In this document: one piece after another, positions 150 through 61,441 of the stretch
Layout: every line of letters begins with the position of its first letter
How positions within the stretch are numbered: position 1 is the stretch's first letter
Source: Euglena gracilis
Taxonomy: Eukaryota
Assembly: GCA_039621445.1 (NCBI GenBank)
Contig: CP154954.1
Coordinates: forward strand, 42,902,632-42,966,631
Direction of reading: 5' to 3'
Length of the DNA stretch: 64,000 bases
The notes under the pieces: generated by a model
What the model was told of the DNA's origin: nothing
Seen by the model: the letters and a program-made list of their open reading frames with translations, nothing else
Database searches by the model: none
Program-made: the position numbers and the translations under genes

Positions 150-3100
150 AGAGGTGCGGGTTCCGGGTCACGATGTGCACGTTGGGGTGGGCGCAGCAGA
201 GCGCCACCAGCAGCGGGTCCACCGTGTGCTGCCCGGCGAGGGGGTCCCCGCCAGACGTGCGCAGGCCGGCTGGGCCCGGGCGTTGGGGCAGCAGGTGGGG
301 GAGGCCACAAGAGGGCGAACCTTGGAGGTGATGCCGAAGGCGACGGAGGCACCACTGAAGAATGCGCACTCCCATAATCTTGCAACTGACCACAGTTTGC
401 GCAAAGTGTGGGGGGATGTGTCAAACCACCGATCCAAGACGTGACAACAAGCAGGGCAGTCATTTTGCAAAAGAAATTTTCCAATCCAATGAATCCAGGG
501 GAAATGGCCAAAAAAATAATATGGTCATAATATTGCCAAAAAAAAAAACGGTTCGACCCGGGAGGAAAAAAATGATTTCTGGCATCCTAGGACCATCCTC
601 CATCCACCCAAAACATAAAAAAAATAGCTTTCCACTTGGTTAGTTTTCGACCTTCTGGCCCTTGGGCCAACCCCCTTGGGGGGGGGGGGTCGGTGGTTGA
701 GTTTTTTCCCGTCCAAAAGGGAAAAAAATCCAGAAAGGAGGTTAAAAAAAACCGCCATTTTTTCAAACCCAAAACCGTCAATTTTTCTGGTGCTTTGAGC
801 CGAAAAAAATTGCATTTGTGACAAAAATTTACCTAAAATGGCCGACTTTGGGAGGAGAATTCTTCAGCCCGGAGCTCCGCACAAAACTGAAAATCTGGCC
901 AAACTTCTGAAAAGGTGTCCTCCGACCGGGGGTAGAGGTCATTGGGGGGGTGACGGCGGTCCTTAAGGGGTCCTTTACAAAAAAAGAATCTGTTCCCTCA
1001 AGGACCACCCTGACAACGAGGCAGTCGCCTGGTTCGCGTGGAGGCGACCGTGCGATCGAAGTCCAGGAAGACGGCCCCTGGGCGAAGTTGCTCCACCAGC
1101 TCCATCCTGGACAAGCCCCTGCAGTCCATCACCCCCCCCCCCAGGCATCGTATTAACCCTGGTGCGCTCGCCCTCCAGTGCCGGTGTCGGTGCCGCATGC
1201 TGCCGCTTGCCACATGGCGGAGGGAGGGGCTTGGGCACCAGCTCGCCGTCCCCACGCCACAGGGCGCAGGCCTCGCAGCTCCACAGGTCGCACACGAAGC
1301 ACTTGGCGGCGTGCGGGCAGAAGGCCCGGCGGTCGCAGCTGCTGCGGAAGGGGCATCCCCTGCGGGGCCCAGCACTGGCACGGCTCTCGGAAAGAAAAAG
1401 CGAAGGGCACGAGCGTGAGGGGGTGGCAGTTTTGCAATGTTTTTGAGTGAGGATCAGCCACTTGTAGCCTGACGGCGTGACCGTGAAGACAATATAAAGC
1501 AAGAACTGTGGGACCACAGCACCTGGATGATGTTAATCACGCATCAATTCGGGCAAACATCTTTCAACATCAAGAAAGGTTGGTTTCCTTCAAAACGTGG
1601 TTGCTGAGGTGAAAAACCAATCAAGCTGGAAGGAACACCTATGCAGCCACTGGTGGTCACGAACTGTACCAAAAACCTGGAGGCACACTGAACCAACCCT
1701 CCGCCAACATGAACACAGACCGATATTGGAGGAAGGAAAGAGGGGGATTTTGGCTGAGACCCGGTTGTCCCTCAGCTCGGGCGGTGGTCTCACACCGCAG
1801 GCACACGCCGCGGTTCACCCAAACCTTGTTGATGGGGCGGGCGCACACCGTGCACGGCGTGGAGCCGGAGAGGTGGCGCTGCGGCAGACATTGGTCGGGG
1901 GCACAGCCCTTTCCGATTTTGTGGTGCTATTTTTTTTGTGGTGGCAGGGTTGATCGATGTTCGGCCCAGCTTGGAGCGCTAGGCCGAACATCAGCCAACA
2001 CGCCATTCTTCACAGCAGCTGTTTTGCCTCTCCATCAAAAAAGGATGGAAGGGGGTGGGGCAGAGAAGCGCCGTGGGCACCGTGATCGCTGAAGGCGGCC
2101 ACCATATTGTCCCACAGCGGCGCCACCGCCTGCCGCACCTCTGCCAATAGCTGCGGCAGCTGGAAGTCCTGCGGCAGGAAATCCGCCGAGTGGTGACGGC
2201 CGAGGCCCGTCCGCCCGCTAACCCCAGTGTCGCAGCACCCTGAACGTTGGTGTTGACAGGCATGCACCCTTTGCTGGACTATGTGGTCCAGTTGCACTCC
2301 CGTTGCGGGTGTTTGATGCAAGCTCGAGATACGTACGTGCCTGGCGGGCCCCGGGGCTGGCGGGGCCGGGGTCACCGATGCGAAACGCAGGGCGGTGCGG
2401 GCCCTGCCCCGGGGAGCGCAGCGGCCGCTGGATGACGGCCAGCCAGCGGAGCACTTCGCGGGTCACGTCGGTGATGCCCTCCAGGGTGTGGAGGCAGCCA
2501 CCCCGCTCGCAGTGCTTAGCCAGTGCTTCGCCATCAAACACCACACAACCCATCCAGTTTGGTGTATGGGTTACTTGCACTGGGAGGGTCACCCTCCCCT
2601 TGGACAAAAAGAAACTGGGGGGCTTCAAAAAAAGGAAAAAGTTTTCACACCCACATGTTTCTTGAAAAATCGGCCAAAAACAAAAAATTGTCTTCCCTGC
2701 AGGGGATTTCTTAAGGACCCCCGCCCCCCGGGGGGTCCAGCCTCCGGCTGGCAAAAAGGCTGCTGGCTGGATTTGAGCTGGCTGGCTGGACCCCCCCCCC
2801 CGGGGGGGGGGGGGGGGGGGGGGGGGTGGGGGGTGGGGGGTCCGGGGCGGGAGGGGGCTGGGCTGGGCTGGGTCGGTGAAAAACAAGGATTTCTAAAACA
2901 TTTTTGCCTTCTCGACATTTTGATGGATGGAGCTAGATTAAGGCTGGGGGGCTGTGATGGGGGAAGCTGTGTGAGTGGAAAAAATGCAGGGATAGGTGAC
3001 CTGGGCAGCCCGTTTGGCTGGCCGGCCTGCGGTCGGCCGGTGCTCTGGCCTCCGGCCGGGCTGGACCCGACTTTATTTCACTCCACCCGGGGGGGGGGGG

Positions 3101-6100
3101 GGCTCCCAGCCCGAATTTGGGCTGCTGGCTGGATTTGAGCTGGCTGGCTGGCTGGACCCCCCCTGGGGGGTGGGGTACCCTCCGGCTTAAGAAATCCCCT
3201 GCTTCCCTGGCAGTAAGTGCCAAGGCTTTTTCTTCGTTCCGGGGGTCCCAAATCCCACCTCGGGTCTGAAGAGGGGGGGGTGCAAAAGCAACCCCCAAAG
3301 CAAAACCAACGTTCACTTGACACCCTGTCCGATTGTGTACAACCACTGAGGTCAACGGCAAACGGAGCCAAACCCCCAACCTGCAATCAGAGCCCAGGGG
3401 GCAAGTGGGTTTCAAACAAAAGAAATACATAAATTTGCGGTCAAGGACTGGGGCAGCCTTTTTTTTACCAACCCGGGTTGGCTTTGGACCCCAGTGCCTG
3501 CCGACCCAGGCAAATTTCCCTTAAAAATGGCCATTTTCGGGCCCCCAGCGCCTTGGGTCTAGGGGATCTACCCCCCCCAACCCCCCCAGGGTTGAAAGTT
3601 CACAGACAAAAGGGCCAGAAGCGAAAAACAGCGCCAGGCCAGAAGAAGGGATAAGGGGCACCAAATAAACAGCCACAGTGCAGGGGAAAGTGCCCTACTC
3701 CCCTGCCCGAAAATAGCACTCCCCCCCCGCTTAAAGGAAGGGCACTTCCTTTAAAAGAAGCCTAGACCGGGGGGAGTGCCCCACCTCTCAAACTGCAGTC
3801 AATGGCCGTGGGATGGTCGTTCGTCACATGAGTGGTCATAGGGCGAGAGGGGGATACAAACCAAAACGCCAAAGGCCAATGGTTGCGGCGACGGGTCTGC
3901 GGAGACGCTGGGCGGAGGTGCATGGCGTGGTGGATGCGGTCGCTCAGCACGCCCGGGGCCGGCTGGAACGCCCGCAGCGCAGTGAGGGCCGCCGGTAGCC
4001 GGGCCCCGACCCATTCCAGGCTGGCCTCCAGGCGGGCCACCAGGTCCACGATGCGGAGCACCTTTGGCAGCAGCGCCCGGCCCGGGGAACGCGCCGCACG
4101 GGACGCCTTGCTGACCCCGACCCCCGACTCACTAAGTGGGTCTTTGAGCTAAGCCCTCCCCCCCCCTGTGGGGGTTGGGCCAAGTGGTTGCCCCACCAGA
4201 GGCGGGGTTTTCCTCTATTTTTTTTGGGACCCTAGAATTGGCCCCCCCAAAAGGGCCCCCCAGTGCCCCCCCCCCCCCCCCAGGGGGTGGGTGGACAAGT
4301 CTGGACCCCCCCCCTCAGGGGATTAACGAAAAAAGGGGGAAACCTGTTACTATTATTAACTGTTATTTCCTCCCAGGAGGAAAGATCGAGCACTTTGCTG
4401 GGAGCGAATGAAAGTTTCCTCCGCCCTGAAAAAGCACCAATCAACACAGGGCAGGGATCCAGGCTCCAAATGAGCCACTGACCCCCCTCCCCGTAAAAAA
4501 AAGACACGCAGCCAAATGGCCTTCATCGCTACACACACTCTTTGCTTTCAAGCCATTGTGAAACGCCATCTGCAAACAGGCGTCCTTCGGCAGACAAATG
4601 CTTTTGTTTTGTTCCACAGGGAAGGGGAGGAAACCCTTGCGGTGAAATGCATCGCAAATCCCGGAGATAATCCGATGGGGTACCCGGCGGGATCCTCACA
4701 GCACGGCGCTGGGTGAGACCCCCCGGGCGATGAAGACCTTCTCGGTGTAGGCAAGGATGTGGGCTGCCGGAAGACGGAAGCCTGAGAACACCCACCCCGA
4801 AAGCTTCCCTGCCTTGGCGGGACTTGAGCTTTGAAGGGGGCGAGGATGGCGGCGGTGGTGTTGGGGGGCGGGCACCCCGTCCAGTATCGTGAGGAGGAGG
4901 AGGAGGAGGAGGAGGAGGAGGAGGAGGAGGAGGAGGAGGAGGAGGAGGAGGAGGAGGAGGAGGAGGAGGAGGAGGAGGAGGAGGAAGCTCCGTCGAGCTG
5001 CCACATAGACTTATTGGAGAAATGGGGCACAAAACAATGGGTCCAGTCAAAAAACACCAACCTGGTGGTTGGGATCATTGTCATCACCATCATCATCCTC
5101 CTCTTCCTCCTCTGACAGACTAAAATGGTGCCGAGGTTGGCAAAGAAGACAAAATCAAAATCAAATCCTGCAGATGACCCAGAACCTTAAATCTTCTTTG
5201 AGTACTGTTCTTTGACATCAACTTCTGAAAACACATCAATGATACCACAAATTTACAGAGGTGCAGGCAGAAAAAAATTTTTGATGGAAATCTGCTGGGA
5301 ACGATGCATTGTGCTATGCTGTGGCCACTTTGATACATGAGTGTGGAGCGTCCGCGGAGGTGTGATCCTGTGAGGGAATGATGCTTGGTGTCACACCATT
5401 GTTGGCCACGCCCAGTGAAGGGATGATCAATCGCCCGCCCCATAAACTGCGCGGTAAAGACGCGCGCATGCGCACATGCATTCACACACAGACAGACAAA
5501 CCCAGAGAGTATGCACACTGTATCTGGAAACCGTCAAGCAGTTGCGTTGGACCCAAAAAAGGGGTATCCTTCTGATCAAGAACGGCGTGATTGGAAGGGA
5601 GGTCGTGGCAACCGCACCACTCTCGCCCGTGTGGGACCGAATCCACGCTTCCGCCCGCTCCAGGGCTCGCGCGACGCCCAGGCTGTGGGGCAAAGCCACG
5701 GTCTGGCTCAACGAAGGCAGCAAAGACCGATCAAATGTGGGGCAAGGGGGGGGCCACCGGTCGACGCCAGCCCTTGGGCAGGGCACGCAAGGGCTCGGGG
5801 ACCGCTGGGTCCGCAGCTGCTGGGGGTGTACGAGGAGAGCCAGGGATGCGACTTACTGGGGGGGGGGGGGGTTGGCCCTTTCCATTAGAACAAAATTGGC
5901 CCTTTCCATTAGAACAAAAATCTGTCCCACCGCGTTCTGTGAAAAATCTGCAGGAATAATGAATGGAATAATGAATTGAAATTGGTCAACAACGGGAAAA
6001 TAACGATTTCTGGAGTCCCTGGAAAAAGCGTCCATCCGCCCAAAACACCAATGATGTCGACCGTTAGAGGCCCCAACCAGGCCGTTACCTGCTACTCAGA

Positions 6101-9100
6101 TCTACAGGCCATGTAAAGGTGTAAAGGCCAAAGAGAAAGGGTTCAACGGTCTTTAAAGGTCCTTAGTTAATTTAAAAAAAAAATCCCGTCCCCACCTGGC
6201 GTTGGGGGGGGGGGGTCGGATGCTACCCCCCCCAGAATGGAGGTGGTTGAACTCCCCCACCACTCAAAGGGGTTCGGGGATTCCATACAGCCCTGAAATG
6301 AGAGTGGTGCAGCTAGCCCACGAAGGACGACCTCTGAGCACATCCCTGGCCAGAGACGGGGTCACTTGCTTCGCGGTTTGATGCCGGGGGCACATACACT
6401 GCGTGGCTCTCGAATTCTGCTTCACCGTCTGAAGAAGGAAAAAAAGGTGACTGGTGGTTAAAGACAAATCCGCAGCATACGTGCTTGTAAGGCCGGGGAG
6501 TGCGGCGCTGCGCTCCACTCGGCCCGGGACCCACGAGCCCCCAGCATCCCCTTCGGGGTGCCTCGGGACGGAGCAGATCCACTTCGTGAACGTCCGGGCG
6601 TCCGTCACGGCCAGCAGCATCCCCTTCAGGCGGGAGAGGAGGCACGAGAGGTGGACGTACCGCTGGTGCTCGGGGGCCTCCGCCGGGGTGCGCAGCAGGT
6701 CCAGGGCGTTGCCTAAGGATCCTCCCTCCCTGTGGGGGTCCAGCTCGGAGGCTGAAAAATTTGGGATGGCTGGATAACGGCTGCTCGCTGACCCCCCTCC
6801 TGAGGGGTCCCGGGCGGGAGCTAGGCCCGGTCTGGGGTCAAACCGCATACTAAAAAAATCAAAATCACAAAAATGTCAAAAAAAACTGCCAACTGTGCAA
6901 AAAAAAAATCGATTTTTTGACCCCAAAAATGTCCTGGCTTTTTTTTTTGATTATTGCACCCATTGCATCCCCGAAAGGGAAAAATCGGTCACTGTCCAGC
7001 CGCCCCAAGAGCGGCTGGAAATTAATAAATCTCGATGATGGGGGGGTCCGGAGCTGGAAAACGGCTGTTGGCGGGAAAAAAGGCTGCTGGCTGGCTGGAT
7101 CCCCCCCCGGCGGTGTGGGGTCAAGTTTTCTCAAGCAACGCCCTGAGCAGGTCACAGTAGTGAAAGACGCACAGCCGTTTCAGCTGGCGTTCGACATTTG
7201 AGCAGAGGGCTTTGGTACCAGGCGGAGGCCACCCCCCCCAAAAAATTAAACACGACACTGAAATGGTGGGGGTAGGAAACTTTGCACCGTCAATGAGCAC
7301 CTTGAAGTATTTCAAGAGTTTGCCCAGCCCCGTCCAATGTGGAAACCTGACCTCACAATGTATCCTGCATGTTTCAGGCAGCAGCATTTTCCAGTGAGCA
7401 GCATCTTCCCAGCTGTGGACCACCACGTTTCTCCCCCTTGGATTTTGAATTGTAACTGAGAGGCATGAATTTACCTCTCTGGGCTGCAGCACCCCCGGCT
7501 CTGGCCAAACAATGACGAAGCACCCATGGTCATCCAGATTTCCAGACCCAGTCACGCTCAGTCACGCCAAGTCACGTTCGGTCACTCACAACCAGACCAG
7601 TCCTAACACAGAAAAAAAAGGGTCAAAATTGGTAAACGTGGAGGGGTGTCATTTATGACGGGGATGGGCAATGCCTCCCTGGCGGCAAACAACCACCCCA
7701 GGCACCATCAAATTCAGCCTCCAGTTTGAACCTGGCTCTCCAGTTTGAACCAGGAATGTTTCACATCAAAAATGCACATGTCAAATGAGATATACGTAAT
7801 GGAGTGGCCCAAAGGTCGGTGGCAGAAAGACACTGATGGAAACACAAAGCGACCTCTGGAAGGGCAGCCTCCTGAGCTGAGCGCAGGCTGCCCAGAAATG
7901 TTTCGACGGCAGCAACCTAAAGGTTGGGGGTCTGGGGTGGGGGTAGGTGGGGGCGGATTGGACTTGAGACATTCAAATCAGAGGATGGGTAGGGGGCAGG
8001 TTTGGAGCGTTGGCAGGACAGTGTGGGTTTCTGGGGGACCCCCCTTTACAGATGTCCATTTTTGGACCCCTTCCAATCCCCCCGAGATAGATGAAAACTT
8101 TGACACAACTAAGTGGCCATTTTAGGCCCCCCAAAAAGGCCTCAAAATTCTTCCGGCACCTTCCGTGCCAGTTCTTGGTCATTTTGGGGGGGTTTGCAAT
8201 ACAGTTGGGACACTGGGACCAGGCTTCTTTTTAAGTCAGGAGACCCCCCCTTGGGGGAGGGGGGTGGGGGTGGGGGTGTGGGTCCGGGCCGGACCCCCCC
8301 CGGGGGGGGGGGGTCCCGCGCCGGAGGCGCTGGGTATACCTTTTCGGCGCGGAGCGCCGAAAATTTTTGAAAATTGCCTTTAACGGGCCCGATTTTGGGG
8401 GGGGGGGGCCCCACCCCCCCCCCCCCCCCCCCGGGGGGGGGGGGGTCCCGCGCCCCCCTGGGGGGGTGGGGGGGGGACCCCCCCCCGGGGGGTCTTAAAA
8501 AGAAGCCTGACTGGGACGCTCCCCCCCATCCCAGCACAGTAAAGCAAATAGTGCTATTTTTAGAACTTTTTGGAACCTCGGGACCCCTCTCCCTCCCAAT
8601 GTTCCTTGGGGTTCACGGCCAGGTCACGGGGGGGGGGGGAGGGATCGGGAACCAATCCAGAACTAAATAAATAGGTATTCAAATTTTAAGCATCTCAAAA
8701 TATTAAAGAGATTTAGCAGCAAAACAAGAATCACCAACCCAAATTAAAAAGTTCAAGCATTAAACTTGGGAAATCCACCAAAAATTTTCATCAAATTCCA
8801 AATCACAAAATTGCAGATCACCAGAGAAAAAACTCAGAGAAAAAGGTTGCCAGGGCTGCTAGTTCAGGTTTCGGGGGACTCCAGTTTGGGGACCACCCGA
8901 ATGCGGAGGCCGTGTCTGCAGAAAGCATTACCTCTAGAACGTTCTACCTACAGGAGGTGAAGCCTGGTAAAGATGAGAAACATCTTCTTGAGCTGCACGA
9001 GCTCCTGCCGGACCATGAACGCCTCCGGTGGGGCCGCCTCCTTCTGGCGGCAGCCCCAAAAAGAAAGCCAAAGGGCATCGCACTGCCTCAGGGGTGCGAC

Positions 9101-9240
9101 AGTTTCAACACAGAAGGGGAGGGGGCGAAGGAGAAGGCGGAGCACGGCCAGCTGCCGGCAACGCTCCAGGATGCAGCCCACCACAGCGGCGGGCAGTGAA
9201 CCCTCGAGGTCACGCTGGGCCGCTTCGAGGGAGTAGAAGC
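150..9240 (-). CDS. Multi-exon hypothetical protein with a Cys-rich segment (CPHAAKCFVCDLWSCEAC) followed by a HAD-superfamily-like motif (VFLDFDRT); both ends unresolved
   Basis: GC-rich coding-like pieces at ~9135-9235, ~8969-9045, 7149-7213, ~6570-6696, ~5620-5700, ~3915-4075, ~2410-2520, ~2080-2190, 1237-~1360, 1035-1106 and ~150-256. In-frame joins across paired-end introns 6697-7148 (YCDL/LRTP), 1107-1236 (GDGELV/MELVEQ) and 257-1034 (ASTR/SGGDP). Other junctions are not resolved. Confidence 0.7.
257..1034 (-). other. Nonconventional (non-GT-AG) intron
   Basis: Minus strand AAC-CAGGC...GCCTG-CGCAC; CAG at +4, CTG at -8; removal gives in-frame DRTVASTRSGGDP. Confidence 0.8.
1107..1236 (-). 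other. Intermediate-type intron (GC-AG ends plus terminal stem)
   Basis: GCC-CAAGCCCCT...AGGGGCTTG-TCCAG; 9-bp stem at +4/-8; in-frame join RGDGELVMELVEQ. Confidence 0.8.
2700..3201. mobile_element. hAT-type MITE, 16-bp TIR, 8-bp TSD
   Basis: TIR CAGGGGATTTCTTAAG / CTTAAGAAATCCCCTG; TSD CTTCCCTG at 2692-2699 and 3202-3209. Confidence 0.9.
4891..4983. repeat. (GAG)31 microsatellite
   Basis: Pure GAG run. Confidence 0.95.
6697..7148 (-). other. Nonconventional intron with perfect 11-bp TIR and perfect 8-bp TSD
   Basis: Minus strand GACCTGCT[CAGGGCGTTGC...GCAACGCCCTG]GACCTGCT; removal gives HYCDLLRTP. Confidence 0.88.
8220..8509. mobile_element. hAT-type MITE (CAGGCTTCTTTTTAAG family), 8-bp TSD
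   Basis: 16-bp perfect TIR; TSD ACTGGGAC at 8212-8219 and 8510-8517. Confidence 0.9.
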
Positions 9241-11977
9241 CAGAGCATTGCAAGATGTTGGGGCAGGGAGTGCCAACTTCAGCGACCATGGCCTCCCCCC
9301 CCCTGCAGCTCAAAAACAAACTGCGAGCTGGGGAAATCGGTGAAATCTCTTGCAGTGTCCTTCTCAAGATGGGCCATGAGGACAAGTTTGAATGAGTGTG
9401 GCATAGACAATCGCTGGTTTTGGCCACTTTTTGTTTCATTGTGGCAACTTTTCCACCCATTTTTCTTTATTTGGGGTGGTTTTCACTCATTTTCTCCATA
9501 TTGGGTCATCATTCCATTTCTAGTATTTTGGGTCAATTTTGGAACACAAATATCTTTTTGATATCTTGCTTTTGTAGTCCTTTGGGCTTGACACAGACAC
9601 CTACAACATCCTTCAAAAAATCATTTTTTGCAAAAAAAGGACATTCTGCATTTTTTCACAAAGTCCTGCAAAATGCAACAAAATACTGCAAAATTGTGTT
9701 TTATTGTGATTGTTTATTGGAATACCTAATGACTAGGTAATGCAAAGGTATCGAGGAAGAGTGAAAAAATGGACGCCTTTTTGTAGCACGAATATTCACG
9801 AGCAATCACTAATAATCACAAAGTTTGTTGAAATACCATTTTTTCAATCACATTTCGCCCCAAATATGTTTGCATTTCATGTCAAATTGCGTGCATTTTG
9901 ATCTCAAAAGGTTTGCACTTGGCACCAATGCCTGCATGTTGTCTCAAAAATGTGTGCACACTCTACCAAAATACCATAGGGAACCGCAAGGGGGATCGGA
10001 GGGGGGGAGGCTGCCCCCCTGTGATTTTGGGGTGAAAAATTTTTCACCCCTGGACCCGCCCCCCCGAACCCTATTCTGAACTCAATTGGGCTTCCAATAT
10101 TCACAAAAAAATACACACTGACTAGGAAAATCTGCAATTCCAAAAAAAAATTCATCGGGAATAAAACACAATGGCTCTGATGATGAAAATAGACAAAGGT
10201 AGCACAGGAGAGAGGATGGCAGAGCAAAGGCCTCTCGCCATGCTTGTTTTCCTTAAATCAGAGGGACAATTTCAGTGATGAGATAAATTTTGATTCATAA
10301 ATACTCATAATTGTTTGTGGTTATTTGTGATTATATTTGCGATTATTCGTGATTATTCGTGATTTGGAGAACCCCAAAGTTTGTGCTGGTTCGTGATTAT
10401 TTGTGATTACTCTCACCCCCCCCCTCAAACTGGCCGCCCCTTAGGCACCTTGGACCCCCAAACGGTCAACCTCGAGGGGGGGGGGGGGCAATGTGGGGAG
10501 TACCATTTAACCATTTTTGACTGAAATAACCAATTTGGGGGGGATTCTTTTTCCAGACCGGATGGCCAATTGGGGGGGGGGGTGGAAAACCGGCCAACTT
10601 TGGAATGGTGAATTTCTGAAAACCGAGCGCCAATCTGGCCTGGGTTATCTCCCAAAACCCAAACGGTCAATCTGGGAGGGGGGGGGGTGAGAGCATACGT
10701 GGCATGGATTTGGGGAATCCCTGCACAAAAAAAAACACTGCCACACATATCTTTCAAAAATCCCGAATGTTTGGTAAAAAATGGAAAAATTTGGCACAAA
10801 AAACCAACAGGAAAAACACAAATTGATTTCTATCCCACAAAACATGGCTTCTTGATATCTTTGCTACTTCTGCAACTTCTTTGCAATTATTAAGCTTTGT
10901 CAAGGAGAAGGTTTTCATTCACTCCCTGAAAATGGGGCTCCACATCAAGAGGACATAGCCCAAGAATGCCTCTGCTGATGTGAGCTGCTTGGGCATGACT
11001 TATGAATTGTGTTGCATCTGCCCATGGCGGCCCTGCAAGAACATCCATTGTGATGTTCCCTGAGCAGGATCCAATACAATAAGACAGCATTGCAAACAAA
11101 AATGGCAGACGACTCTAAAACCCTAGCCTTCGTCTGGGACACAGTTCAATTAATGAGGAGGTGTAGGTTAACCCGAAAAAAGGTCGCCTTGTGGTATCTT
11201 GCAAGCACTTGTGTACAAACAATTGATAAAACATATTGACGGTCTTTGCCAATGAAAAAAAAAAGACGAAGAATAACAAAATTTTAGTGGTCGAATATTT
11301 GTCGACTCTTTGCTAGAATATTTTTGCAATATTCGAATGTTCGAATATTTTGAAGTAATCGAATATTCGTCGAATATTCGAATGTTCGAAGCAGCCTTAT
11401 GCGGGCCAGGCGGGGAGTTGCGGGGAAATCAAAATGCCGTTGAACAGGGCATTTTGAGGGCTTCAGTACCACCCCCCCCCCCTTATTGTCCCACCGACCT
11501 CCCCCCGGGAGGCCCGACCGGACAATATGGGGGGGGGTACCAAAGGAATTTCATTGGCCGAGCCAAAAAAACCCCCCGTCGGCCGGGGCCGAGGGACAAT
11601 ATGGGGGGGGGGGGGGACAAGGACTTTTTCTGTTGATTTTGTTTTATTTCCAAAATAGTTTGGAAACGTCGATTTTTTGACCCGAAAACAGCCAAAAGTG
11701 GCCCCAGAAATGGTCCAAAATTGGCTGAAAAATGGCCGTAACTCAGGCCGCACGAAGAGTTTGGGGAAAAGTAAATCATGGCTGGATAGGGCATTCAAAG
11801 GCTTCATTTTTGGTTGTGCAGGGCTTCATTTTTTTTTGATGATGGTGATACAGGGGGGGGGGTTGTTGATAAAAAGTCAACTAGTCGGTCGACTAACTTT
11901 TGAGTCGACCGACAAGTCGACCAATTTCACCCCCCCCCCATTTGGCTAATGGCCAGGCTCCTTTGGACCCCAATTAG

Positions 11978-38700: not shown

Positions 38701-41700
38701 AAGTTTTGTCCGGTTGGGGCAATTATTTTTGCCAGCTGTGGGCAAACATTTCAGACGCTAGGTGTAAGAGCTGTTTCTTTGTTTGAAAAATAATTAAAAG
38801 CTATTATTTCATTTCAAAAGCTGTTTCTTTGGTCGTTTGCAATTTGTGTGGTGGCAGTTTTTTTTCCCCTGATACTCCCAATTTTTCACGGTTTTTTCCC
38901 CTTCCTTTCAGTTTTTCAACTCTGCAATACACTTGGGCTGGAAAATGCAATGAGTTCTGGCCATTTGCAGAATGAGTTGATTTCTTGATGAACCTGTATT
39001 AAAGACTGAAGACATTGTTCAAAAGGAACCATTCTTTCTCATGAGCTTTTGCACATACTTGATACCATTTTTTTTTTCTTCAGCAATGCTGTTATTTTTA
39101 TTCCAGGTTTTTTTGCAGTTCTTGTATCCTCTGACACTAATCCCCCTGTCTTTTTTTGTTCCTTTTGTACCTTTCAACATGCAAAACACACCCCATTCTG
39201 ACACGTACCATTACGGTGGGGATTGGGGCTGTGGTGGTGGTTCCTTCGCCCACGACGTCCACATCAACCCCGGCGCCTACTCTGAGACTGAATATCCCTA
39301 CGTGAGCCACATGGGGTGGACTGGGCAGGCAAAAAAAATATGGAAACATTCATCCCTGCCTTTAATTGGGGAGCCCAGCCCTGACCTTTCCATCATCAGG
39401 TTTTCTCAACGGTTTGTTGGGTTATTATTTTGAGAATTTCCATATCTTCTCATCGGTTTGTTCGGCTATTATTTTGAGAATTTCAACATTTCACCCCAAA
39501 ATGTCCCAAAAATGGCTCAGTCAAAACAGGCCAAAATGCAACAAGGCCAGGCCAATACAGGGTGATGGAGGGCCCCTGGGCCCTTATTTTAGGTCCCCTG
39601 ATTTCCTTTGGTTGGCCACCATTTTGGAAATACTTCAAAATTTCGATTTTCTGACCCCCGAAATGGCCCAAAAACAAATGAGTCGAAACCGGTCAAATGT
39701 ACAATACAGGCTTCGTTTCAAGGAAGTGGACACCCCCGGGGGGGTGCTATGGGCAGGTGGGGGGGGGGGGCAGGACACCTTCGACCCCCCTAGTTGTTTT
39801 GACCCTAGGCTTTTGGGGTATGTAGTGCTGCAGCACACCCCCCGGCACCCAAGATGCCAGGGGCCTGAAAATGGCCATTTCCAATGGAATATCGGCTTGG
39901 TTGGCAGGCACCGTGGTCCAAAACCGACCCCCCCCCCAGGGGGTGTGCCTGCTATGGGGCACCCATAGCAGGCACCCTTCCTGCCGGGGTTGGTAAAATG
40001 AAGCCTGGTACAGTGTTTGTCAGAAGCTGCTTCATTTTTGCCCGAAGAGTCTCTTTTGCTGTTCTGTCCCGCTGTCCCCATGGCAGGCCAAGACTCAAGT
40101 GCATACCCCTAGCCCTGGATGAAAGCCTCCTGGGGCGCACAAGGGCATTCCCATTTTGGGGTTTTCCCTTCCCCTTGTCCACACGCTCCCTTTGCACCTT
40201 GCCCAACAACCCACCTCATGGTCTCCCAACCGACCCCGCCGGCGAGACACCGAGTGCGACACGGGCCGCGCCACCGTCGTGGCGAAGCTCACCCGGTGGC
40301 AGTTTGTACCCCTGCCGGACCGGCCGGAGGAACAGGTGACGGCCATCAAGACCGCGCTGTGGACGGGGGGCCCCGTGGCGGTCGGCGTGGCGGCCGGCCC
40401 CCAGTTCCAGGCGTACACTGGGCCAGGGAACCCCAGCAGGTCCCCCCCCACGGGTTGGGGGGCGGTCGGACACCTTAACCCCTGCCGCTCCTCCTCCATG
40501 CCCTGCCTAGGGTTGCAGGGGTTAGCTTGGCTGCTGGCTCTTTCCCCCAAATGACTTTGCCCCTGGACGGATCTTTTTAGCCCCTACCCCCTGCAAAGTT
40601 ATGTGAGCCAAAACCAACGTGGCCCATTGGCCACTTTTCCTAAAAGAAGTTTGCTGTCACATGACGTTTTTTAATAAATAATTCCGACATAATTCTCTGC
40701 TTCTCATGACACCCCCCCCCCCGGTCGGAGGACACCTTTTCGGAGGTTTGACCAAATTTTTGGTCCCGGCGCGAAGCGCCGGGACGAAAAATTTTGCCCA
40801 AAAATTGGCCAAAAATTTGGCCAAAATGCCATTTTTGACACTTTTTGGACAAAAATTTGTCAAAATTGCCCAAAATTTTTGGCGCGAAGCGCCGGAAGGG
40901 AAAATTGGGGCATTTTTGGGTGGTTAGGGACCCGGGTGCCCACCAACTTTTTTTTGACCCCATGTCCAACGACCACCCCCCCGGTCAGAGGACACCTTTT
41001 TGGTCACTACCCTATGTCCAACGACCACCCCCCCGGTCGGAGGACAGAGGTTACTGGTCGTTGGACATAGGGGGGGGGTAATTCCGACATAATTCTCTGC
41101 TTCTCTTCGTTGGACAACAGAACACAACGATGTTTCAGACCATTTTTGCTCTTACCACCATCTGATTTTCAAAAATGATCATATTTCGTCACGTTTTTTT
41201 TTCTCCACCAAAGTTATTTGGCGGTTATCTGTGGAGGATTGATGCAAATCCTTGAGGTTCCGTGTTGGTATTACACAGATGCTGGAATTGAAATGCCTTT
41301 TGTCAATAGTGTACTTTGTGGACCGGAACTTATGATGAAAAGAGTATCCTGTCGGTGGGCATGCTCTCTCTCCATTGCTCAGCCCACCGCCAAATTGCGT
41401 GTTCCAGTGCCCAAGGTTTTTTTCCTTTTCCCCCCCAAAGTTTTCCAAATGTGAATCACAATCATATAGTCAAGCAAACACCCTCCCCTTGAAAATATGC
41501 TTCTGCAACGTCCCTGCATCCGAGGCATCTTCAATTACATGGACCCAGGAGAGGTTGCTCGGCGTCGTGTTACACAACAATAAAAAATATTTTCACAGTT
41601 CCATTGGAGGAAAGTGGTAGGGAAATTGGTCGATTTTTCTCACCACGGGTCCTGAAAAAAATCAAACTTGCAAAAATGCGGAAACGGCTGAAGAAAGCAG

Positions 41701-43070
41701 AGATTGGGAAACGCCCCGCATACACAAGCAAAAACGATTTTTTAACTCATATTTGCCAATGATCCAGAAGTTTGACAACCCTGGAGGGTATGTTTTGTAT
41801 AGCTGAGAGTCCATAATATCAACTCCCACCAGAAATCAACCTGTTGTCAGTAACGTTGCCAGACGACGCTGCCGACAACCACGCAGTGCTCCTGGTGGGA
41901 TGGGGATCTGAGGGCGGCGTGGGCTATTGGCTGCTGCGCAATTCCTGCACAGGGAGGATTCAGGCCGGTGCCGATGGGAATTTTCCAGGATGTTCAGGAA
42001 CAGATGGGAAGCCGTTTGGCTTTGAGGTTGGTGGTTGAGGAGGCCCGGACCACCCCCTCCCCCCTCCTGGGGAGGTGAGGTGGTAGGGGTCCGGACCCCA
42101 GATGTTGATGGGGTTGTCCACCCCCTCCATCCCTCCTCCTTGACAGGTTCCAAAAAGAGCAAATCTTTCCTCTGGCGCTGCGCACCGGAAAATGAACAAA
42201 TAATCAAATAACAACAAGTTATAAAAAAAATAACAGATGACGCCCTTTCACTTCACTTTTGAGCAATTCTGCATTTTTTTTTTATATGTTGGTGTTTTCC
42301 GCATAAAATGTCTTCAGATTTTTTTTAATTGAGCTTATTTGGATTTATTATTCAAGGAATTAAGGAGTTTGGCCTGGTATTTGGGCTGGTATGGACGCCC
42401 TTTGCCGTCCATGAAACCGAAAAATTTCCTGGCCCCCTGCAGTTTCAAGGTAGGAGGGGGGTCCGACCCCCCCTCTCGGTGTTGGGCGGGGGGTTCTGGA
42501 CCTGGATTTAATTTGGCAACCATTCCTGTTTTTGATTTGTTAGCACTGTTCTAAGTTTTAAAAATGGATGCAACCCGGGACACAGGGGGGGGGGACGCGG
42601 GGGGGGATACGGGGAGAAAACCCCCAGGAGCATGGCGGGGTAATGCCTCAGGTCAGAGGGCAAAAATAACAAGGGCACTGAGGTACGGAACGATGAAATG
42701 GGCAAGTAACAGTAACAAGATATGACAAAGGAAGCCAAAATTTGTGATCAACCCAAAAACCTCCGAATATTCCCCCCCCTCAAATTTCAGGTGCTGTCAT
42801 CTACGTTGCTTCTCACAGGAATTTGCTTTTTTCAAAAAAAAGAAAACCCCTTCTCTGGCACCACAGCCCATCAATTTCTCAAAACGGCAGCCTGGCAGCT
42901 GTCCCGGCATTGGGGTCGTCCCTCACCCAAGGTTTCCGCCACCCTCTCCCCCTGCATCTCCCTCCACCTGCCCCTTCCTGGCGTTGGGGCAAGGGGTGGG
43001 GGGAAGCGGGCTACATGCGGATCAAGTACGGCTGCAGCCAGGTCGGCGCATTTGCCAACTACGTGGTGGA
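32790..43070 (+). CDS. Papain-family (peptidase C1A) cysteine protease, multi-exon, catalytic triad intact
   Basis: Exons ~32790-32874 ([23 protein letters not shown], prodomain), 36396-36488 (LPDQFDWR), 38118-~38273 ([23 protein letters not shown]), ~39215-39305 (GCGGG, EYPY), ~40243-40420 (GPVAVGV, FQAYTG), 41522-41542 (GIFNYM), ~41850-41946 ([17 protein letters not shown]), 42986-~43070 ([13 protein letters not shown]). Possible start ATG at 30106 (MALRLVLW) and possible C-terminal exons to ~53740 are tentative. Confidence 0.92.
33147..34211. mobile_element. CAG(G)nAAATGCG MITE with TGCGCATTTTT repeats, 6-bp TSD, nested inserts
   Basis: TSD GTTGGT at 33141-33146 and 34212-34217. Confidence 0.7.
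35477..35775. mobile_element. hAT-type MITE, 8-bp TSD
   Basis: TIR CAGGCTTGTGCTTA / TAAGCACAAGCATG; TSD GATGCAAC at 35469-35476 and 35776-35783. Confidence 0.88.
36301..36372. mobile_element. 72-bp hairpin MITE of the CCATG...CATGG (TA-target) family
   Basis: CCATGCCCCCCCATATAAGAC / GTCTTATATGGGAGGGGCATGG followed by TA. Confidence 0.7.
39707..40007. mobile_element. hAT-type MITE, degenerate 8-bp TSD
   Basis: CAGGCTTCGTTT / AAATGAAGCCTG; flanks GTACAATA / GTACAGTG. Confidence 0.7.
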
Positions 43071-43239
43071 TCCGCATGGTGTGCCCCCTCCACCCCACCT
43101 CACCCCGCTTGTTCCGCTTGTTAAATACGAAAGAAACTTGGGGATGTTCCATTGTTCCAATGTCCCATTGCTCGATGCGAGTGGATGGACTTCAGCACAT
43201 AGCACAGTAAATATATTCATATTTGTATTCATATTCATA

Positions 43240-43705
43240 TTGTTTTGTATTGTATTGTACTGTATTGTATTGCATTGCATTGCATTGATACCATATTATA
43301 CATTCACATATGTATTATGTTGTATTATGTTATATTCATATTACATTACATTATACTATATGTAACAAATTTATATTGTATTGCATTGCATTGCATTGCA
43401 TTATATTATATTTATATTACATTATATTATATCATAGTGTATTACATTATATTGTATTGTGTTATCTTATTTTGTCTTATCTTATCTTATCTTATCTTAT
43501 CAAATCTTATCTTATATTACATTATATCATATTGTATTGTATTATATTATGTTATGTTTATCATATCATATCATATCATATCATATCATATCATACCATA
43601 TCACATCATATCATATCATATTGTGTTGTATTGTATTGTATTGTATTGTATTGTACTGTATTGTATTGTATCGTATTGTATTGTATTGTATTGTTTTGCA
43701 TTGTA
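43240..43705. repeat. AT-rich pentamer satellite (TATTG/ATCTT/ATATC)n
   Basis: Consecutive blocks of related 5-mers. Confidence 0.92.
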
Positions 43706-50510: not shown

Positions 50511-53241
50511 CTTAGGCGGCCTAACTCGCACTTAAGGTTTTCATTTTTAGCTTGCGCTTTGGCGCAAATTTTCGATTTCGTTGAGACCCGGCGGTAGAAC
50601 CCACCCTTTTGACCCTCTGGTTCCGCGGAGACCCTCCACGGTGGCGTGTGCATCATTTTCCGATGTCGGAACCCGGGGAACAGGCCCAATTTTGGTGTTT
50701 TTCGGCCTGTGCACCATTTTTTAAAAGGTCCAAAACCCTGGGTTTGACCGCTGAGACACGTGAATTTTCCCAAAAATGGGCCAAAACCCCCGGTGTGAGT
50801 CCCTCGTTTTTGAAGCCTTGACAGTGTTCCCCGGATGGTGCCACACAGTCCGGGTGACAATTGGCCCTTTTTGTTGCTTTTTTGGCTCTGTGATATGTCC
50901 GTGAAGAGTTTGGTTGCTGAGGCATCCAGAGGGTGGACTCTACATGCACGTTGTGAAAAGTTGGAAAAAACGGCGTGTCACAGAGTTGTGATCCCTGGGT
51001 GCTTGAAGCGTGAGGAGCGGTACAGCGGGAACCACTCTGGTGGGGGGGGTTGGGGGGACTGAGGACAAGCCTAGGGACCTCTCCCAACGTCTGGTGAGCA
51101 ACGCCAGGCCCCACACTGCCGGGCACAGAAGGCAATGGTTAAGGACATTTGCGCTTAAGCGCAAATTTTTAGCTTGCGCTTAAGCGCAAGTTAAAAAATT
51201 TGCGCTTAAGCGCAAGCTAAAACAGAAGCCGCTGAGTTTATGGGAGTCCCTCTGATGTGTTACGGTGTGTCGGGGGCCCCTCTCTGAACGGCCAGAGTGC
51301 AGGCTTGGTGAGGAAATACCTTGCGCCGAAGCGCAAAGGACATGCCTACATAATGCACTGCTTGTTCATCCACATTACACGTCAGCCGCGTGTTTGCACT
51401 TCTCAGTTTTTTGTATGATGGTTTGCGCTTCGGCGCAAGGTATTTCCTCACCAAGCCTGCACTCTGGCCGTTCAGAGAGGGGCCCCCGACACACCGTAAC
51501 ACATCAGAGGGACTCCCATAAACTCAGCGGCTTCTGTTTTAGCTTGCGCTTAAGCGCAAATTTTTTAACTTGCGCTTAAGCGCAAGCTAAAAATTTGCGC
51601 TTAAGCGCAAATGTCCTTTTAAATGGCAGATGTATTTGAATGCCTTCGTGCTGTGTGAGAAGGTGGGGGATAGAGGAGAATGGTGAGGGGGGTTTGTGTG
51701 CTGCTGTGCCAGAAGCTGGGTTGGTGCTTTTGAACTATTCAGGTGCTGGGGAGGAAGTGGTTGTTACAATAAGACGAATGGTGGGCGGTAGGCTGTGGTG
51801 CCTCAGTGACCTTGCACTCGGTGCACAAAGTGGGGTTTTTGGGGATGTTGACAGAAAGGCTTTTTCTGCTGAACAATGCCTCCATCTGCCTGGTGGCATG
51901 TGGCTGTCTGGTGGGTTGCAAAATACCGAAAAAAGGCGTGTCAGCATGTCTTCCCTTCTCCGCCGCTGTTGATGGGCCCTTTCAATTTCTCAATTCCATT
52001 CGCTCATCCCCAAAGTTCTGTGCTTCAAATCCTGGGCGAGGAAAGGGGGGTGACGAGCTTCTTTAAAACACCCTTTCGACGCCTAAAACTGTTTCCTCGG
52101 CTGTGGTTCCCAGGGTTTATCTGGTACCTGTTCTTTTCCACACAGGTATTTTCCGACTTTTAAAAGTCGGCCAAAGAGAAGGGCCCCTCAGGCACGCTTA
52201 AGTGCGAGGCAAGTGGGAGGAACCTCCGGCACTGGAAGTTGGGTTTACAACGCATAGGACAAGGCACGTCTGGCTGTCAAGAAGTTGGTGGTTGTTTTCA
52301 CAGACCAGGGGGTTGGCTTCCTGTCCCAGGCAAGGCTTCCCTCCATCTGAGCTCTGTCCGCTCTGGTGATGAGATGCTTCCAGGACTGCTCTCTCCACCC
52401 GCAGTGATAAAAATGGAAAATACAACTTGATGGCTGTTGCGCCAAAGCGCAATGGGTAGGCTCATGAAGAATGGAAATTTAAGAGTTATATTGCGCCAAA
52501 GCGCAAGTAGAAATGCACTTTTAAAATTGTCAAAGCAACGTGGCTCTTGCGCCGACGCGCAATGTTGACCAGTTTTAAGTCAACGTGACTGAGAGTAGGC
52601 TTCCGTCCCCCTGTTCTACATTTTTGTGCTCCATCCCCTCTGGTGGTCTTACTCTACCAGGGCCGTTCTCTCCCTGCGTTGTGAGATAAGTTTTAACCAG
52701 TTATATTTGCGCTTCGGCGCAAGCCATGTTGCTTTTGCAATTTTAAAAATTGTATTTCTATTTGCGCTTTGGCGCAAGGTAACTCGTAAATTTCCATTCT
52801 TCATGAGCCCACCCCTTGCGCTTTGGCGCAAATGGAAACACACGTTGACTCAAAAGTTGTTATCATTGTTCAAATGCGGCAATGGTCACCCACGTGTTTA
52901 ATCACAAAAAAGTCAAAAATTTGCGCCAAAGCGCAAATGGTTTTATTTTTTGTAATTTCAAAAATTTGCGCCAAAGTGCAAATGAGTAATGGAGTCCCCT
53001 CGTTTCATCACCCGCCGCCTTGTGTTCATGCACACTGGGACTCGGGAGCGCTGTGCCTGTGGACCGTGGAGTTCCTAGTCGTTGCTTTCGTCCTCAGGCC
53101 CTGGGGTGCAGGGAGACACTATTTTCAGACTGTCTCGAGTCTCAGGCCACGGTGGTCGAAAACCAAACTTTTTTTGGGATTTGCGCGTCGGCGCAAATTT
53201 ACAGTCACTTTCAAAGCTAAGTGCGAGTTAGGCCGCCTAAG
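50511..53241. mobile_element. 2.7-kb non-autonomous TIR element, copy 1, 5-bp TSD
   Basis: TIR CTTAGGCGGCCTAACTCGCACTTA; TSD AGTGG at 50506-50510 and 53242-53246; colinear with 56152-58631. Confidence 0.9.
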
Positions 53242-53740: not shown

Positions 53741-54237
53741 ATTGTGCATATTGGTGTGCGGATGCTCTTGGCTCTGAGGCTCTTCCAGCCCATGTCCTCT
53801 GACAGGTCAACCACCTCTGGGGACCCCTGATAGTTTCAATGGGGGTCAACAAACGACAGTGCATGCAGGAGGTTCGAGGGGTCTTCCTTCAAAGGTACTG
53901 GAGGCCCCCGGCGTGACGCCAAGAGGAGGGGTTGGCAGAAAGGCTGCGCCAGCCCCAGGTCTCTGGACCCTCCCATCGCAGAATGAGCTAAACTGCGGCC
54001 CCATTCTGTCTGTGGGTGGCGGACTCGATCGGTGCCCTGAGGTTGTGTGCCCACCGGACCGCCGAAGGCACCCGCAGGGGACTGCGGGGCCCGCTGTGAG
54101 CCCGTCGGCCCCCGCGACCAGGACCGGCCTCCCAAGCCATACCCTTTGGCAACACTCTGAGCCAGGACGAAGCTCGCAGTTGGCAGAAGACGATCCAAGG
54201 CGGAGGAAGCAAGAGCCTGGTCGTTCCACATTGGGGG

Positions 54238-54405
54238 CAGGCTTCTTTTTAAGTCAGAAGACCCCCCCCCCCGCCGAAATTTTTTTGAAAATTGTTTTTA
54301 ACGGGCCCGATTTTAGCCCCCCCCCCCCAGGGGGGTCCTGCGCCACCTGGGTGGGTGGGGGGGGGACCCCCCCTCCCCCCCCCCGGGGTCTTAAAAAGAA
54401 GCCTG
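54238..54405. mobile_element. hAT-type MITE (CAGGCTTCTTTTTAAG family), 8-bp TSD
   Basis: Same TIR as 8220-8509; TSD ATTGGGGG at 54230-54237 and 54406-54413. Confidence 0.9.
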
Positions 54406-54849
54406 ATTGGGGGTGGCCACTGAGCGCGTGCCCCCCCCCCAATGGTGCACTGCATGCACCAGAACTCACCACAGCCCCCCTCCAATCGCAGCGGGGGGAG
54501 GCGGCAAGGCCCAGGCCGCCCTGCCCGCAGCCAGTGAGCTGCAGTGCACTCACATGACCCCGGTGGGCCGCACCGCCCGCCGCACCACGCCGCGCCTTCC
54601 CGCCGGGCGGTCGCCGGTGGCGGTGCCCCAGCCCCCAGGCGAGGATGTAGGGGGCATGCCCTTGCGTGGGGTGGTCCGACCCCCCCCCCAGGGGTGACTG
54701 ACTGGTTTTTGGCTCCGGATCCAGCCCCAGAAGTGGCACACCAGAATCAATTCAAAAAAAAAAAACTTCACCAGGGTCTTCTGGATTTGGGCCATTTTTG
54801 CTTGAGCACCAGAGTGATCGGTTGGCTTCTATTCTTGACTGAGAGAGAG

Positions 54850-58948: not shown

Positions 58949-61441
58949 ATGGCCGGGGGGCACTGGCTGCTCGCCACCGCCCTGCTCGCCCTCTGCAGCC
59001 CCGCGGTGGCAGACCACGCTGCTGTATTTGTCATTTCTAAGGCCCATCCGGGGACGGTCTGCAGGGACCCACCCCCCACTCCCTGGAGGTTTGGCGGCAA
59101 GGCCTGCGCCCGCCAGCCTGGCCGCATTGGGAGTGACTCCCTCTCCACCCGTCATCTTGGCCCTCCCGAATTTTTTTGGCGGTTCCCAAAATTCCGCAAA
59201 AAAAAAACCGCCCGGTGTTTTCCCTCCGCCCCGCTTTTCTACCAAGTATTTTTTTTGAACAAAATAGTGTGGCAGGTTTGCGGTTGTGATTGTGGACGCT
59301 GATGTGTATTCACTAACCGCAGTTGACCTTGGGAGACAAGAGACCCTTCCCCCCCAGGGGGCCCCCCAGCGGTGGACGCCCTGGCTTTATGGCCCCGTCC
59401 CGCTTCCGAGTGTCCGGCAAACCGTAAATCAACGGCGGCGTGGGGCAGACCCCCTCACAGCGGCGGACCTCGCCGCGCTGCGGGCGCGGGCCGCGCCAGA
59501 GGGCTGGACGTTCGCCGTGGGGCGGGGCGTCGCTTACGCCACAGGGCCCCCATCCCCCGGGGTCCCGCCAGCCGGCCAGCCGGCCCCCTTTCTCCCGCCA
59601 GCCCAACTTCGCCCGCCTCTGAGCCGGACTCCCCCGGGGACCGCTACGCGACGCCCCGCCGTGGGTCGCAACGCCGCCACCGGCCGCCGCCTCGCGGACC
59701 TCACCGGCCTCGCCCCGCCGCCGGACTTTGTGGAGGCCGCCGCGCCCAGGGCGGCGATGGGGGAGGGGGGGAATGGCAGGGGGCGGCGTTGCTCTTCCTT
59801 CCCCCCTTCGGCTGCCCCGGGCGATGCCGCCTGCGGATGCCCCCCACAAGGATCCCACCCACTCAAGTGTCCTGCGGGTTCGATCCATTTTTGGGCGACT
59901 TTCTCTTGGTACCTGAAAGATTATAAAACTTGAGACAATCCAGAAGATAAATGGAATTGGCGAAAAATGCCCCCTGTTTTTGAAAGTGGACGTACCCCTT
60001 CCCTTCCGGCCCCCCCAATGTTGTTGAACATGGGGAGGGCACAAAAGATGTTCCAAAAAAAGCTCAATATTTGGGGGTTTCCTGGCTTATTTTGGAATAT
60101 GTTGCCTGACGTATTTTTTCCCATTTCAAACTTGAGCAAGTTGAAATACGGATTGCAAATACTGCAAACAAAAGATACCAAAGTCCTGAATGGTATAGTT
60201 TATAATATTAAGCACTGCGAACATGGCAATCTTCGTGTTGAGGAAAACCCCTTCACAAAAAACACAGAACCCTCCTCCCTGAGGGTCTTGATATTCCACC
60301 CCAACGTAGAACCAGGGTTGTTTTCAGGGGGCTGGGGTTGGTTTTGTTCCAGAATGTCCCAAGCACTCAAATTGCATCAATATTTTGGATCTCCAGTTCC
60401 CCCCTATTTTTTTCCCGATTACTTTCCTGGGCAGGGGTTTTTTTAGTCGTGGACCCCCGGGGGGGGGGTAGGGTGGATGGGTCCGGCCGAGCCCCCCCCC
60501 CCCCTGGGGGGTGTCCCCCCGGAGGGGGGTGGGATATACTTTTTGGCGCCGCAGGCGCCGAAAAAATTCTAGTTTTAGCACTTTTCGCGATTTTTCGGCC
60601 ATTTTTTTTGTGGGTCCCCCGGGACCCCTCCCTGGGGGGGGGGTGGGTGGGTGGGGGGGACCCCCCCTCCCCCCGGTCTTAAAAAAACCCCTGTTCCTGG
60701 GAGTGCAATCCAAATGAATGCATCTCCAGGTGTATTGCACTGCAAATGTTTCCTAGAACCTGGAGGCCTCCCAACCCCCCACACACCATAACCTGGGAGG
60801 TGCCCCCCCCCCCAGAGGGTGTCCCAGATGTCCCCCTGAAAGCGACGCTGCCCGCCACAGAGACGACGGATCTGGCCAGCCCGCTGCCGGAGGAGTTTGA
60901 CTGGCTGGTCTTTGTGCAGCAGTGGTACGGGGTCCTGGGGCAGCCTGACCAGACGGCAATTGTCCCGCCTTCCGTCTGGCAGAGCATCCCGTCAATGAGT
61001 TGCCAATTTCCCGTTGTGTGGTTGGCTTGTGTTGTTCTCCATCGTTCTGAAGTTGACAGCATGAGGTTAACTAAAAGTTGTTGACCCGCCCCCCACAATG
61101 GAGAGTCTGTGGAATGGAGTGGACAACCCCCCCAGAGGAGGGGTTCCTCCATTTTCGCCTGAAAGGTTTTTGGGTTGGGTTAGTGAGTGAGTGGGTGGAG
61201 GCTCAGAAAGAAACTTTGGCATGTGTATGCGTAGTGTGTGTGCATTGTGTTGTGTGTGTGTGTGTGTGTGTGTTGTGTGGTGTATGTTGTGCTGTGCTGT
61301 GTTGCTCTGCACTGTGCTGCGTTTGGATGAGTTGAGCTTAGTGGTGAATGTGCATGATGTGAGTTGTGTGAATGTGCACATTTTGTGGGGGGTGTGAGTG
61401 TGTGAGTGAGTGAGTGAGTGAGTGTGTGTGTGTGTGTTGTG

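Follow-up and report, generated by a model that had tools for sequence, protein, structure and literature searches.

The stretch of Euglena gracilis DNA considered here (GenBank assembly GCA_039621445.1, contig CP154954.1, positions 42,902,632 to 42,966,631 of the forward strand) is called the window, meaning its full length of 64,000 nucleotides (nt), and all positions are counted from its first letter. A gene on its minus strand is interrupted at 6694–7153 by a sequence resembling a transposable element of the miniature inverted-repeat type (MITE). The interruption is a euglenid nonconventional intron, a known class, of which this is an unusually fresh and intact copy.

In the orientation of the gene the order is GACCTGCT (7153–7146), CAGGGCGTTGC (7145–7135), the interior, GCAACGCCCTG (6712–6702), and again GACCTGCT (6701–6694). 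The MITE-like core covers 444 base pairs (bp) at 6702..7145, is given without strand, and contains runs of G/C and of A/T homopolymer. Its terminal inverted repeats (TIRs), 7135..7145 at the gene-sense 5' end and 6702..6712 at the 3' end (both minus strand), belong to an inverted pair of 16 nt at 88% (6702–6717 with 7130–7145), in which the outer 11 nt are perfect and 14/16 match over the extended length; the element ends fit the pattern CAGG....T...TAAG. Outside these lie the two copies of the 8-nt direct repeat, taken as a target site duplication (TSD), which the repeat search finds to be 100% identical between 6694–6701 and 7146–7153. A perfect 11-bp TIR with an 8-bp direct repeat had been proposed here in an earlier, sequence-only reading of this DNA, and the repeat search and the sequence agree with it.

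Removal of the element from RNA

RNA was aligned to 5200–9700 as two contig sets (X15 and X16) and two sets of raw RNA-seq reads (X21 and X24), taken from six presumed RNA contig sets and four raw RNA-seq runs that share an organism label with 14 DNA-type runs. On the minus strand, 6693 is joined to 7146, with 452 nt skipped, in one contig of X15 (1130 nt, depth 71) and one of X16 (748 nt, depth 106), and the same skip is present in one raw read from X21 and one from X24. Eight letters at this joint are ambiguous and fit either side, such that what is lost is the element together with one copy of the repeat. The intron, referred to as intron D, is placed at 6697..7148 (452 nt, minus strand), and its junction can slide by 8 nt with the mRNA unchanged. 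Junction reads had been suggested as the check on the sequence-only reading; the RNA keeps one repeat copy, not both, the skip is exactly 452 nt in contigs and reads, and the idea that the TIR and TSD element is an intron of a minus-strand gene is borne out. For the stranded reads that span joints, the first mate is on the plus strand in 12 cases and on the minus strand in 2 which, for the usual library type, indicates that the RNA is from the minus strand.

There are nine joints besides 6693|7146 in the same contigs. These include 5384|5591, 5687|5776, 5835|6352, 6385|6487, 7197|8970 (with 17 letters between), and 9029|9144, and loose contig ends map to 10932 and 4862. The exon upstream of intron D (7149..7197, minus strand, 49 nt) encodes a product ending in HVERQLKRLCVFHYCDL, and the exon downstream (6487..6696, minus strand, 210 nt) encodes one beginning with LRTPAEAPEHQRY. 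The upstream exon had been expected to cover 7149–7213. This holds for 7149–7197, but 7198–7213 is the end of the preceding nonconventional intron (joint 7197|8970); the boundary at 7213 had been guessed from an AG that the RNA shows to be unused. The 17 letters within that joint are a micro-exon (7862..7878, minus strand, 17 nt), which lies between introns C1 (8969–7879) and C2 (7861–7198), is present in both RNA contigs, and matches the residues AQEGA in the orthologue.

The orthologue is P0003, a protein of 626 amino acids that is the sole homologue among the proteins searched, with 78% identity over the exon (query P0001, 6482–6710). Its source is GGOE01042270, and the GGOE accession series is given as the Euglena longa transcriptome in the text available of bioRxiv 10.1101/573709. 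By tblastn with P0003, the gene runs along the minus strand from 11048 down to 151 or beyond. When the RNA-supported exons are joined they give 311 codons with 0 stops, collinear with P0003 at every joint including that of the micro-exon. Over the intron D junction the product is CVFHYCDLLRTP (HYCDLLRTP), as had been predicted from sequence, in frame and now seen in RNA, and P0003 reads CVFHYCDLLHTP (HYCDLLHTP) in the same place. Since both TSD copies align by tblastn to the same residues of P0003, 122–124, the orthologue shows the state before the duplication, with a single DLL that comes from an RNA-derived sequence. No Pfam family was found for the exons of the gene or for P0003, and at the gathering threshold there are 0 Rfam families in the window.

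Two other introns of this gene have features of their own. At 9030–9143 (minus strand) there is a nonconventional intron of 114 nt, CCG...CGG with a 4-nt 3' spacer, which is in frame and open, so that a gene caller would add 38 residues; the orthologue is without them and the RNA skips them. Intron I (5358–4863) contains a (GAG)n tract, perfect over its 31.7 copies, at 4891–4985.

Termini and folding of the introns

The borders of the ten RNA-supported introns are not those of conventional introns. In gene sense, GT/GC-AG borders are absent from all ten (0/10) in any equivalent placement; for intron D these number 9 on the minus strand, with no GT/GC..AG among them. When the introns are placed with a 3-nt 5' spacer, CA is found at +4,+5 with TG at −7,−6 in eight out of ten (in intron A, with its 4-nt 3' spacer, the TG is at −6,−5). 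Three complementary bases are found at +4..+6 and −8..−6 in all ten (−7..−5 in introns A and B, with 4-nt 3' spacers), and the downstream exon opens with a purine in nine, this being the G at 6696 in the case of intron D.

The noncanonical splicing code of Euglena is given as 5'-N3CDG-/-CH'GN5-6|R in the text available of Nomura et al. 2025 (PMC12501133), where knock-in mutagenesis in Euglena gracilis, with introns of E. agilis, served to define it. Intron D reads GCT-CAGGG...CCCTG-GACCT|G in the placement 7148..6697, which fits N3-CAG...CTG-N5|purine exactly, although this placement is one within an 8-nt slide and the exact cut is not readable from the mRNA. Under this code, the upstream TSD copy (7146..7153, minus strand) leaves GACCT in the mRNA and supplies GCT as the 3-nt 5' spacer, the CAG of the 5' TIR is at intron +4..+6, the CTG of the 3' TIR is at −8..−6, and the GACCT of the downstream TSD copy (6694..6701, minus strand) is the 5-nt 3' spacer. 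Intron D also matches the consensus reported for nonconventional introns of E. gracilis, CCAGG at +3..+7 and CCTG at −9..−6 (PMC11170887, in the text available).

The first and last 17–19 nt or so of the element are predicted to pair as a terminal stem in both the minimum free energy and the centroid structure of the RNA. The minimum free energy is −170.3 kcal/mol (z −2.8), and 0/100 shuffles were as low.

Both the positions of CA and TG and the hypothesis of an origin from MITEs go back to Milanowski et al. 2014 (PMC3935182), and the MITE origin is repeated in the discussion of PMC12501133. The CAG/CTG pair has been termed a TIR and the repeats at the junctions TSD-like in a review (PMC11282704), which also describes excised euglenid nonconventional introns as circular RNAs that leave the transcript later than the conventional introns do. 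In E. agilis, 71.8% of introns are reported to be nonconventional and 84.4% to be slidable through direct repeats, conventional introns included (PMC12501133). The sequence-only reading supposed that several families of element feed the same splicing route. From the fit to the code and the 0/10 introns with GT-AG borders, that route is the known euglenid nonconventional pathway and not that of the spliceosomal introners.

Sibling elements in the window

A search of the window for non-palindromic 8-bp direct repeats flanking a perfect TIR of at least 9 bp, 80–3000 bp apart, found seven. Dinucleotide-preserving shuffles of the window (100 in number) gave 0.08 such structures on average and never more than 1, with one in 8/100, which argues that the combination of TIR and 8-bp repeat is not due to chance. 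The 11-mer of the TIR is by itself not enriched in the window, with 4 hits at up to 1 mismatch where 1.7 are expected. Five of the seven start with CAGG, and their ten ends fit CAGGnnnnTnnnTAAG, 7/10 exactly; all five of these CAGG-ended elements have perfect 8-bp TSDs.

Besides the element at 6694–7153, these are siblings at 2692..3209, 8212..8517, 54230..54413, and 60424..60701, likewise given without strand. The first has TSD CTTCCCTG and a 16-bp TIR, CAGGGGATTTCTTAAG, and is nested in the intron of the same gene between exons 3915–4064 and 2347–2493. That at 8212..8517 (TSD ACTGGGAC, 16-bp TIR CAGGCTTCTTTTTAAG) is nested in intron C1 without being an intron in its own right. The copy at 54230..54413, of the same family as 8212–8517, has TSD ATTGGGGG, and the one at 60424..60701 has TSD TTCCTGGG and TIR CAGGGGTTTTTTTA(A/G), both from the scan for repeats and TIRs. 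Since two of the siblings are nested within larger introns, the TIR and TSD architecture is independent of being an intron, and these nested elements are true transposons.

The two members of the 8212–8517 family have identical 16-bp TIRs and different 8-bp duplications, with interiors in which long runs of G and of C predominate. Over 8220–8370 the depth of the RNA contigs is 170–460, so this family is abundant in transcripts. There is also a sub-terminal module at 7077–7110 in the element of intron D that recurs in 15–17 other RNA contigs; position 7100 is a T in this element and a C in nearly all of the others. The module is common to different elements, being partly present at 2746–2799 and 3139–3176.

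In the case of the several families supposed by the sequence-only reading, the nine remaining introns of the gene do have termini that differ beyond CA(G), but the five intact elements share a 16-bp end pattern and, on their sequences, look like sub-families of one superfamily. Since 8-bp duplications occur here with short TIRs that begin with CAG, the favoured superfamily for the element at 6694–7153 is hAT, and it is probably best described as hAT-like. Short TIRs starting CAG(G) are characteristic of hAT transposons. By inspection there is no transposase-like long open reading frame (ORF) in the window, in which no search aimed at transposases was made.

The flanks of the other introns carry what may be remnants of such duplications. 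In the other nine introns, the 8 nt that precede the 5' helix agree with the 8 nt that follow the 3' helix at 6/8, 4/8, 4/8, 4/8, 3/8, 3/8, 3/8, 2/8, and 2/8 positions. This TSD-like identity in register comes to 39/80 over the ten introns and 31/72 without intron D, where random partners from within the window give about 18–20 and 1/2000 controls reached 31. From these sequences, the remnants look like an age series in which intron D is the youngest.

At 37833–43365 (plus strand) there is a gene for a papain-family cysteine protease (Peptidase_C1, E 5e-15 for the ORF of the first exon), with introns of about 1 kb and about 3.5 kb. The sequence-only reading had placed comparable elements in the introns of this protease. 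These remain unconfirmed, as three scans of the gene (37.8–43.4 kb), which covered CA..TG ends with flank identity of at least 5/8 and any TIR of at least 10 bp with a direct repeat of 3–11 bp, found no 8/8 repeat with a TIR and weak candidates only.

Elsewhere in the window, a near-perfect palindrome of about 450 bp, whose arms reach 177 bp, occupies 51153–51606, and there is a smaller palindrome at 56792–56997; both are centred on or flanked by GCTTAAGC. The ORF products at 50.5–51.1 kb and 56.3–56.8 kb are similar, which suggests a duplicated segment.

Origin of intron D and its relation to known systems

That a MITE inserted into an exon and is now erased from the mRNA by euglenid nonconventional splicing is, at a probability of roughly 0.85, the explanation preferred here. 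A non-autonomous DNA transposon of 444 bp would have inserted into the coding exon and duplicated 8 bp of the target, presumably through a transposase making 8-bp staggered cuts, for which a hAT-like enzyme is favoured. In the transcript, the inverted ends would pair as a terminal stem and bring the junctions together. The pre-mRNA would then be repaired by the nonconventional pathway of euglenids, which is of a non-spliceosomal type, through a presumed excision chemistry, with one cut falling 3 nt before the 5' CAG and the other 5 nt past the 3' CTG, beside a purine. Since 3 + 5 = 8, the length of the duplication, the element would be removed together with exactly one duplicate and the frame from before the insertion restored, whatever the sequence of the target. 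Since the ends of the element are symmetric, removal should work in either orientation, the one further requirement being that base six of the duplication, here a G (GACCT|GCT), is a purine. Seen from the plus strand, where the duplication reads AGCAG|GTC, the element has the conventional borders CAG|GT...CAG|GT; these coincide with the N3/N5 cut, and an insertion of this element in the opposite orientation would make an intron readable under both codes.

A broader proposal can be built on this, with about an even chance of being correct. The 3/5 geometry of the cut may be tuned to the 8-bp TSD of a single superfamily, CAGG-ended, with 16-bp TIRs and still active, with the roughly 70% of introns that are nonconventional being its decaying insertions and the series 8/8, 6/8, 4/8 and so on reflecting their ages; the splicing machinery may have co-evolved with, or been derived from, the recognition of transposon ends.

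Several points weigh against the insertion and its removal by splicing. The contigs of X15 and X16 are only presumed to be RNA, and the support from raw reads at 6693|7146 is thin, at one read per run in two runs, with the first mate of one of the two being on the minus strand. A second full copy of the 444-bp core is absent from the window, where BLAST finds pieces of 23–40 nt only, and the other RNA contigs with the 7077–7110 module share nothing more and diverge before the TIR. Of the ten introns, only three (C1, C2, and D) agree with the published code in its strict form. The placements within the slide ranges were picked to fit N3, and the control partners for the TSD remnants, drawn from random positions in the window, were not matched for composition. 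An unoccupied allele would also yield an identical RNA joint with one copy of the repeat.

This last point leads to one of the alternatives, namely that the source of the joined RNA is another allele or gene copy, never hit by the insertion or cleared of it at the DNA level, with the copy that carries the element being a disrupted allele. A young insertion, possibly a polymorphic one, is indeed suggested by the perfect TIR and TSD. Against this, the nine other introns of the same molecule, with repeats that are absent or decayed, are removed in the same geometry, and 14 DNA-type runs contain 0.86–0.92 of the words of the occupied stretch. Clearance by a transposase also fits poorly, as excision of hAT elements usually leaves a footprint. 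Intron D, moreover, conforms in all its parts to the Euglena code established by experiment in the text available of PMC12501133, and an empty allele is accordingly considered improbable.

It is similarly improbable that the inverted ends and the 8-nt repeat reflect a requirement of splicing, or an RNA-mediated spread by the reinsertion of intron circles, instead of DNA transposition. A staggered cut in DNA characteristically leaves a duplication of fixed length, here 8 bp. Elements that are not introns (8212–8517 and 2692–3209) carry the same inverted ends, along with perfect 8-bp duplications. The terminal stem is indeed functionally needed for splicing and direct repeats are found at 84.4% of E. 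agilis introns (PMC12501133), and the excised introns are circular (PMC11282704), yet about 3 paired bases suffice for splicing where the ends of the elements match over 11–16 bp.

Compared with these, a conventional spliceosomal intron of 443 nt similar to an introner, from the GT at 7155–7154 to the AG at 6714–6713, has a negligible chance: both dinucleotides are present and the product HYCNALDLLRTP (HYCNALDLL) would be in frame, but no contig or read has that joint, all show the 452-nt skip, and the orthologue is without NAL. An antisense conventional intron on the plus strand, where AGCAG|GTC provides CAG|GT...CAG|GT borders and thus GT..AG with the cut shifted by 5, is as remote, since the nine other joints in the same contig include no plus-strand GT-AG, both the open frame and the orthologue place the gene on the minus strand, and 12/14 stranded reads point to minus-strand RNA.

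With insertion of a MITE and its removal by nonconventional splicing as the preferred explanation, this locus adds a fresh copy and not a new system, the MITE origin of euglenid nonconventional introns having been a published hypothesis since 2014. At that time, according to PMC3935182, no transposons were known in euglenids. To the study of how these introns arise and how they are cut, the locus offers a concrete element with exact splicing, an orthologue without the duplicated residues, and siblings that lie outside exon junctions. The agreement of 3 + 5 with the length of the duplication would provide a simple rationale for the 3/5 spacer rule found by experiment, and this rationale predicts that slide lengths are capped at 8, that removal is independent of orientation, and that frame restoration is lost with a duplication of 7 or 9 bp. 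In the literature searched, with supplements such as the slide-length histogram (Fig. 1B/S3 of PMC12501133) outside the search, no text states the match of 3 + 5 with 8, names a superfamily, or connects hAT or a duplication of 8 bp with the nonconventional introns of euglenids.

Among known systems, intron D is closest to the other euglenid nonconventional introns. It shares with them the absence of GT-AG borders, the CAG/CTG pair with 3-nt and 5-nt spacers, the purine of the next exon, the predicted terminal stem, the slidable junction, and removal from the mRNA. There is no difference in kind; what sets it apart is the 8/8 duplication and a TIR of 11–16 bp that is common to siblings that are not introns.

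The element itself resembles the MITEs of the hAT superfamily, as these are generally described, in its 8-bp duplication, its short TIRs with CAG(G) first, and its small, non-coding body. The Ds element of maize, reportedly spliced as a de novo intron, is similar in that an insertion in an exon is tolerated through RNA splicing. Removal of Ds is imprecise and by the spliceosome, at cryptic GT-AG sites, whereas that of the element at 6694–7153 is exact and makes no use of GT-AG.

Merlin transposons are described in E. gracilis with 8-bp duplications and TIRs of at least 24 bp that end 5'-GG, in the text available of PMC8101967. The length of the duplication is the same here, but the 6694–7153 type ends in CAGG and has a TIR of 11–16 bp, shorter than in Merlin.

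Spliceosomal introners derived from MITEs are said to occur in Micromonas and Aureococcus. Introns of MITE origin are also listed for Amoebophrya, Polarella, and Fritillaria in the review PMC11282704, in the text available. As in these introners, an element with TIRs and a TSD would have made a new intron on inserting at 6694–7153, with the message restored partly through the duplication. The introners are removed by the spliceosome, sometimes in a relaxed form, at sites that are carried by the element or derived from the duplication, whereas the intron described here ignores an available GT (7155) and AG (6713) and would be cut at distances measured from the structure, 3 nt beyond the stem on one side and 5 nt on the other.

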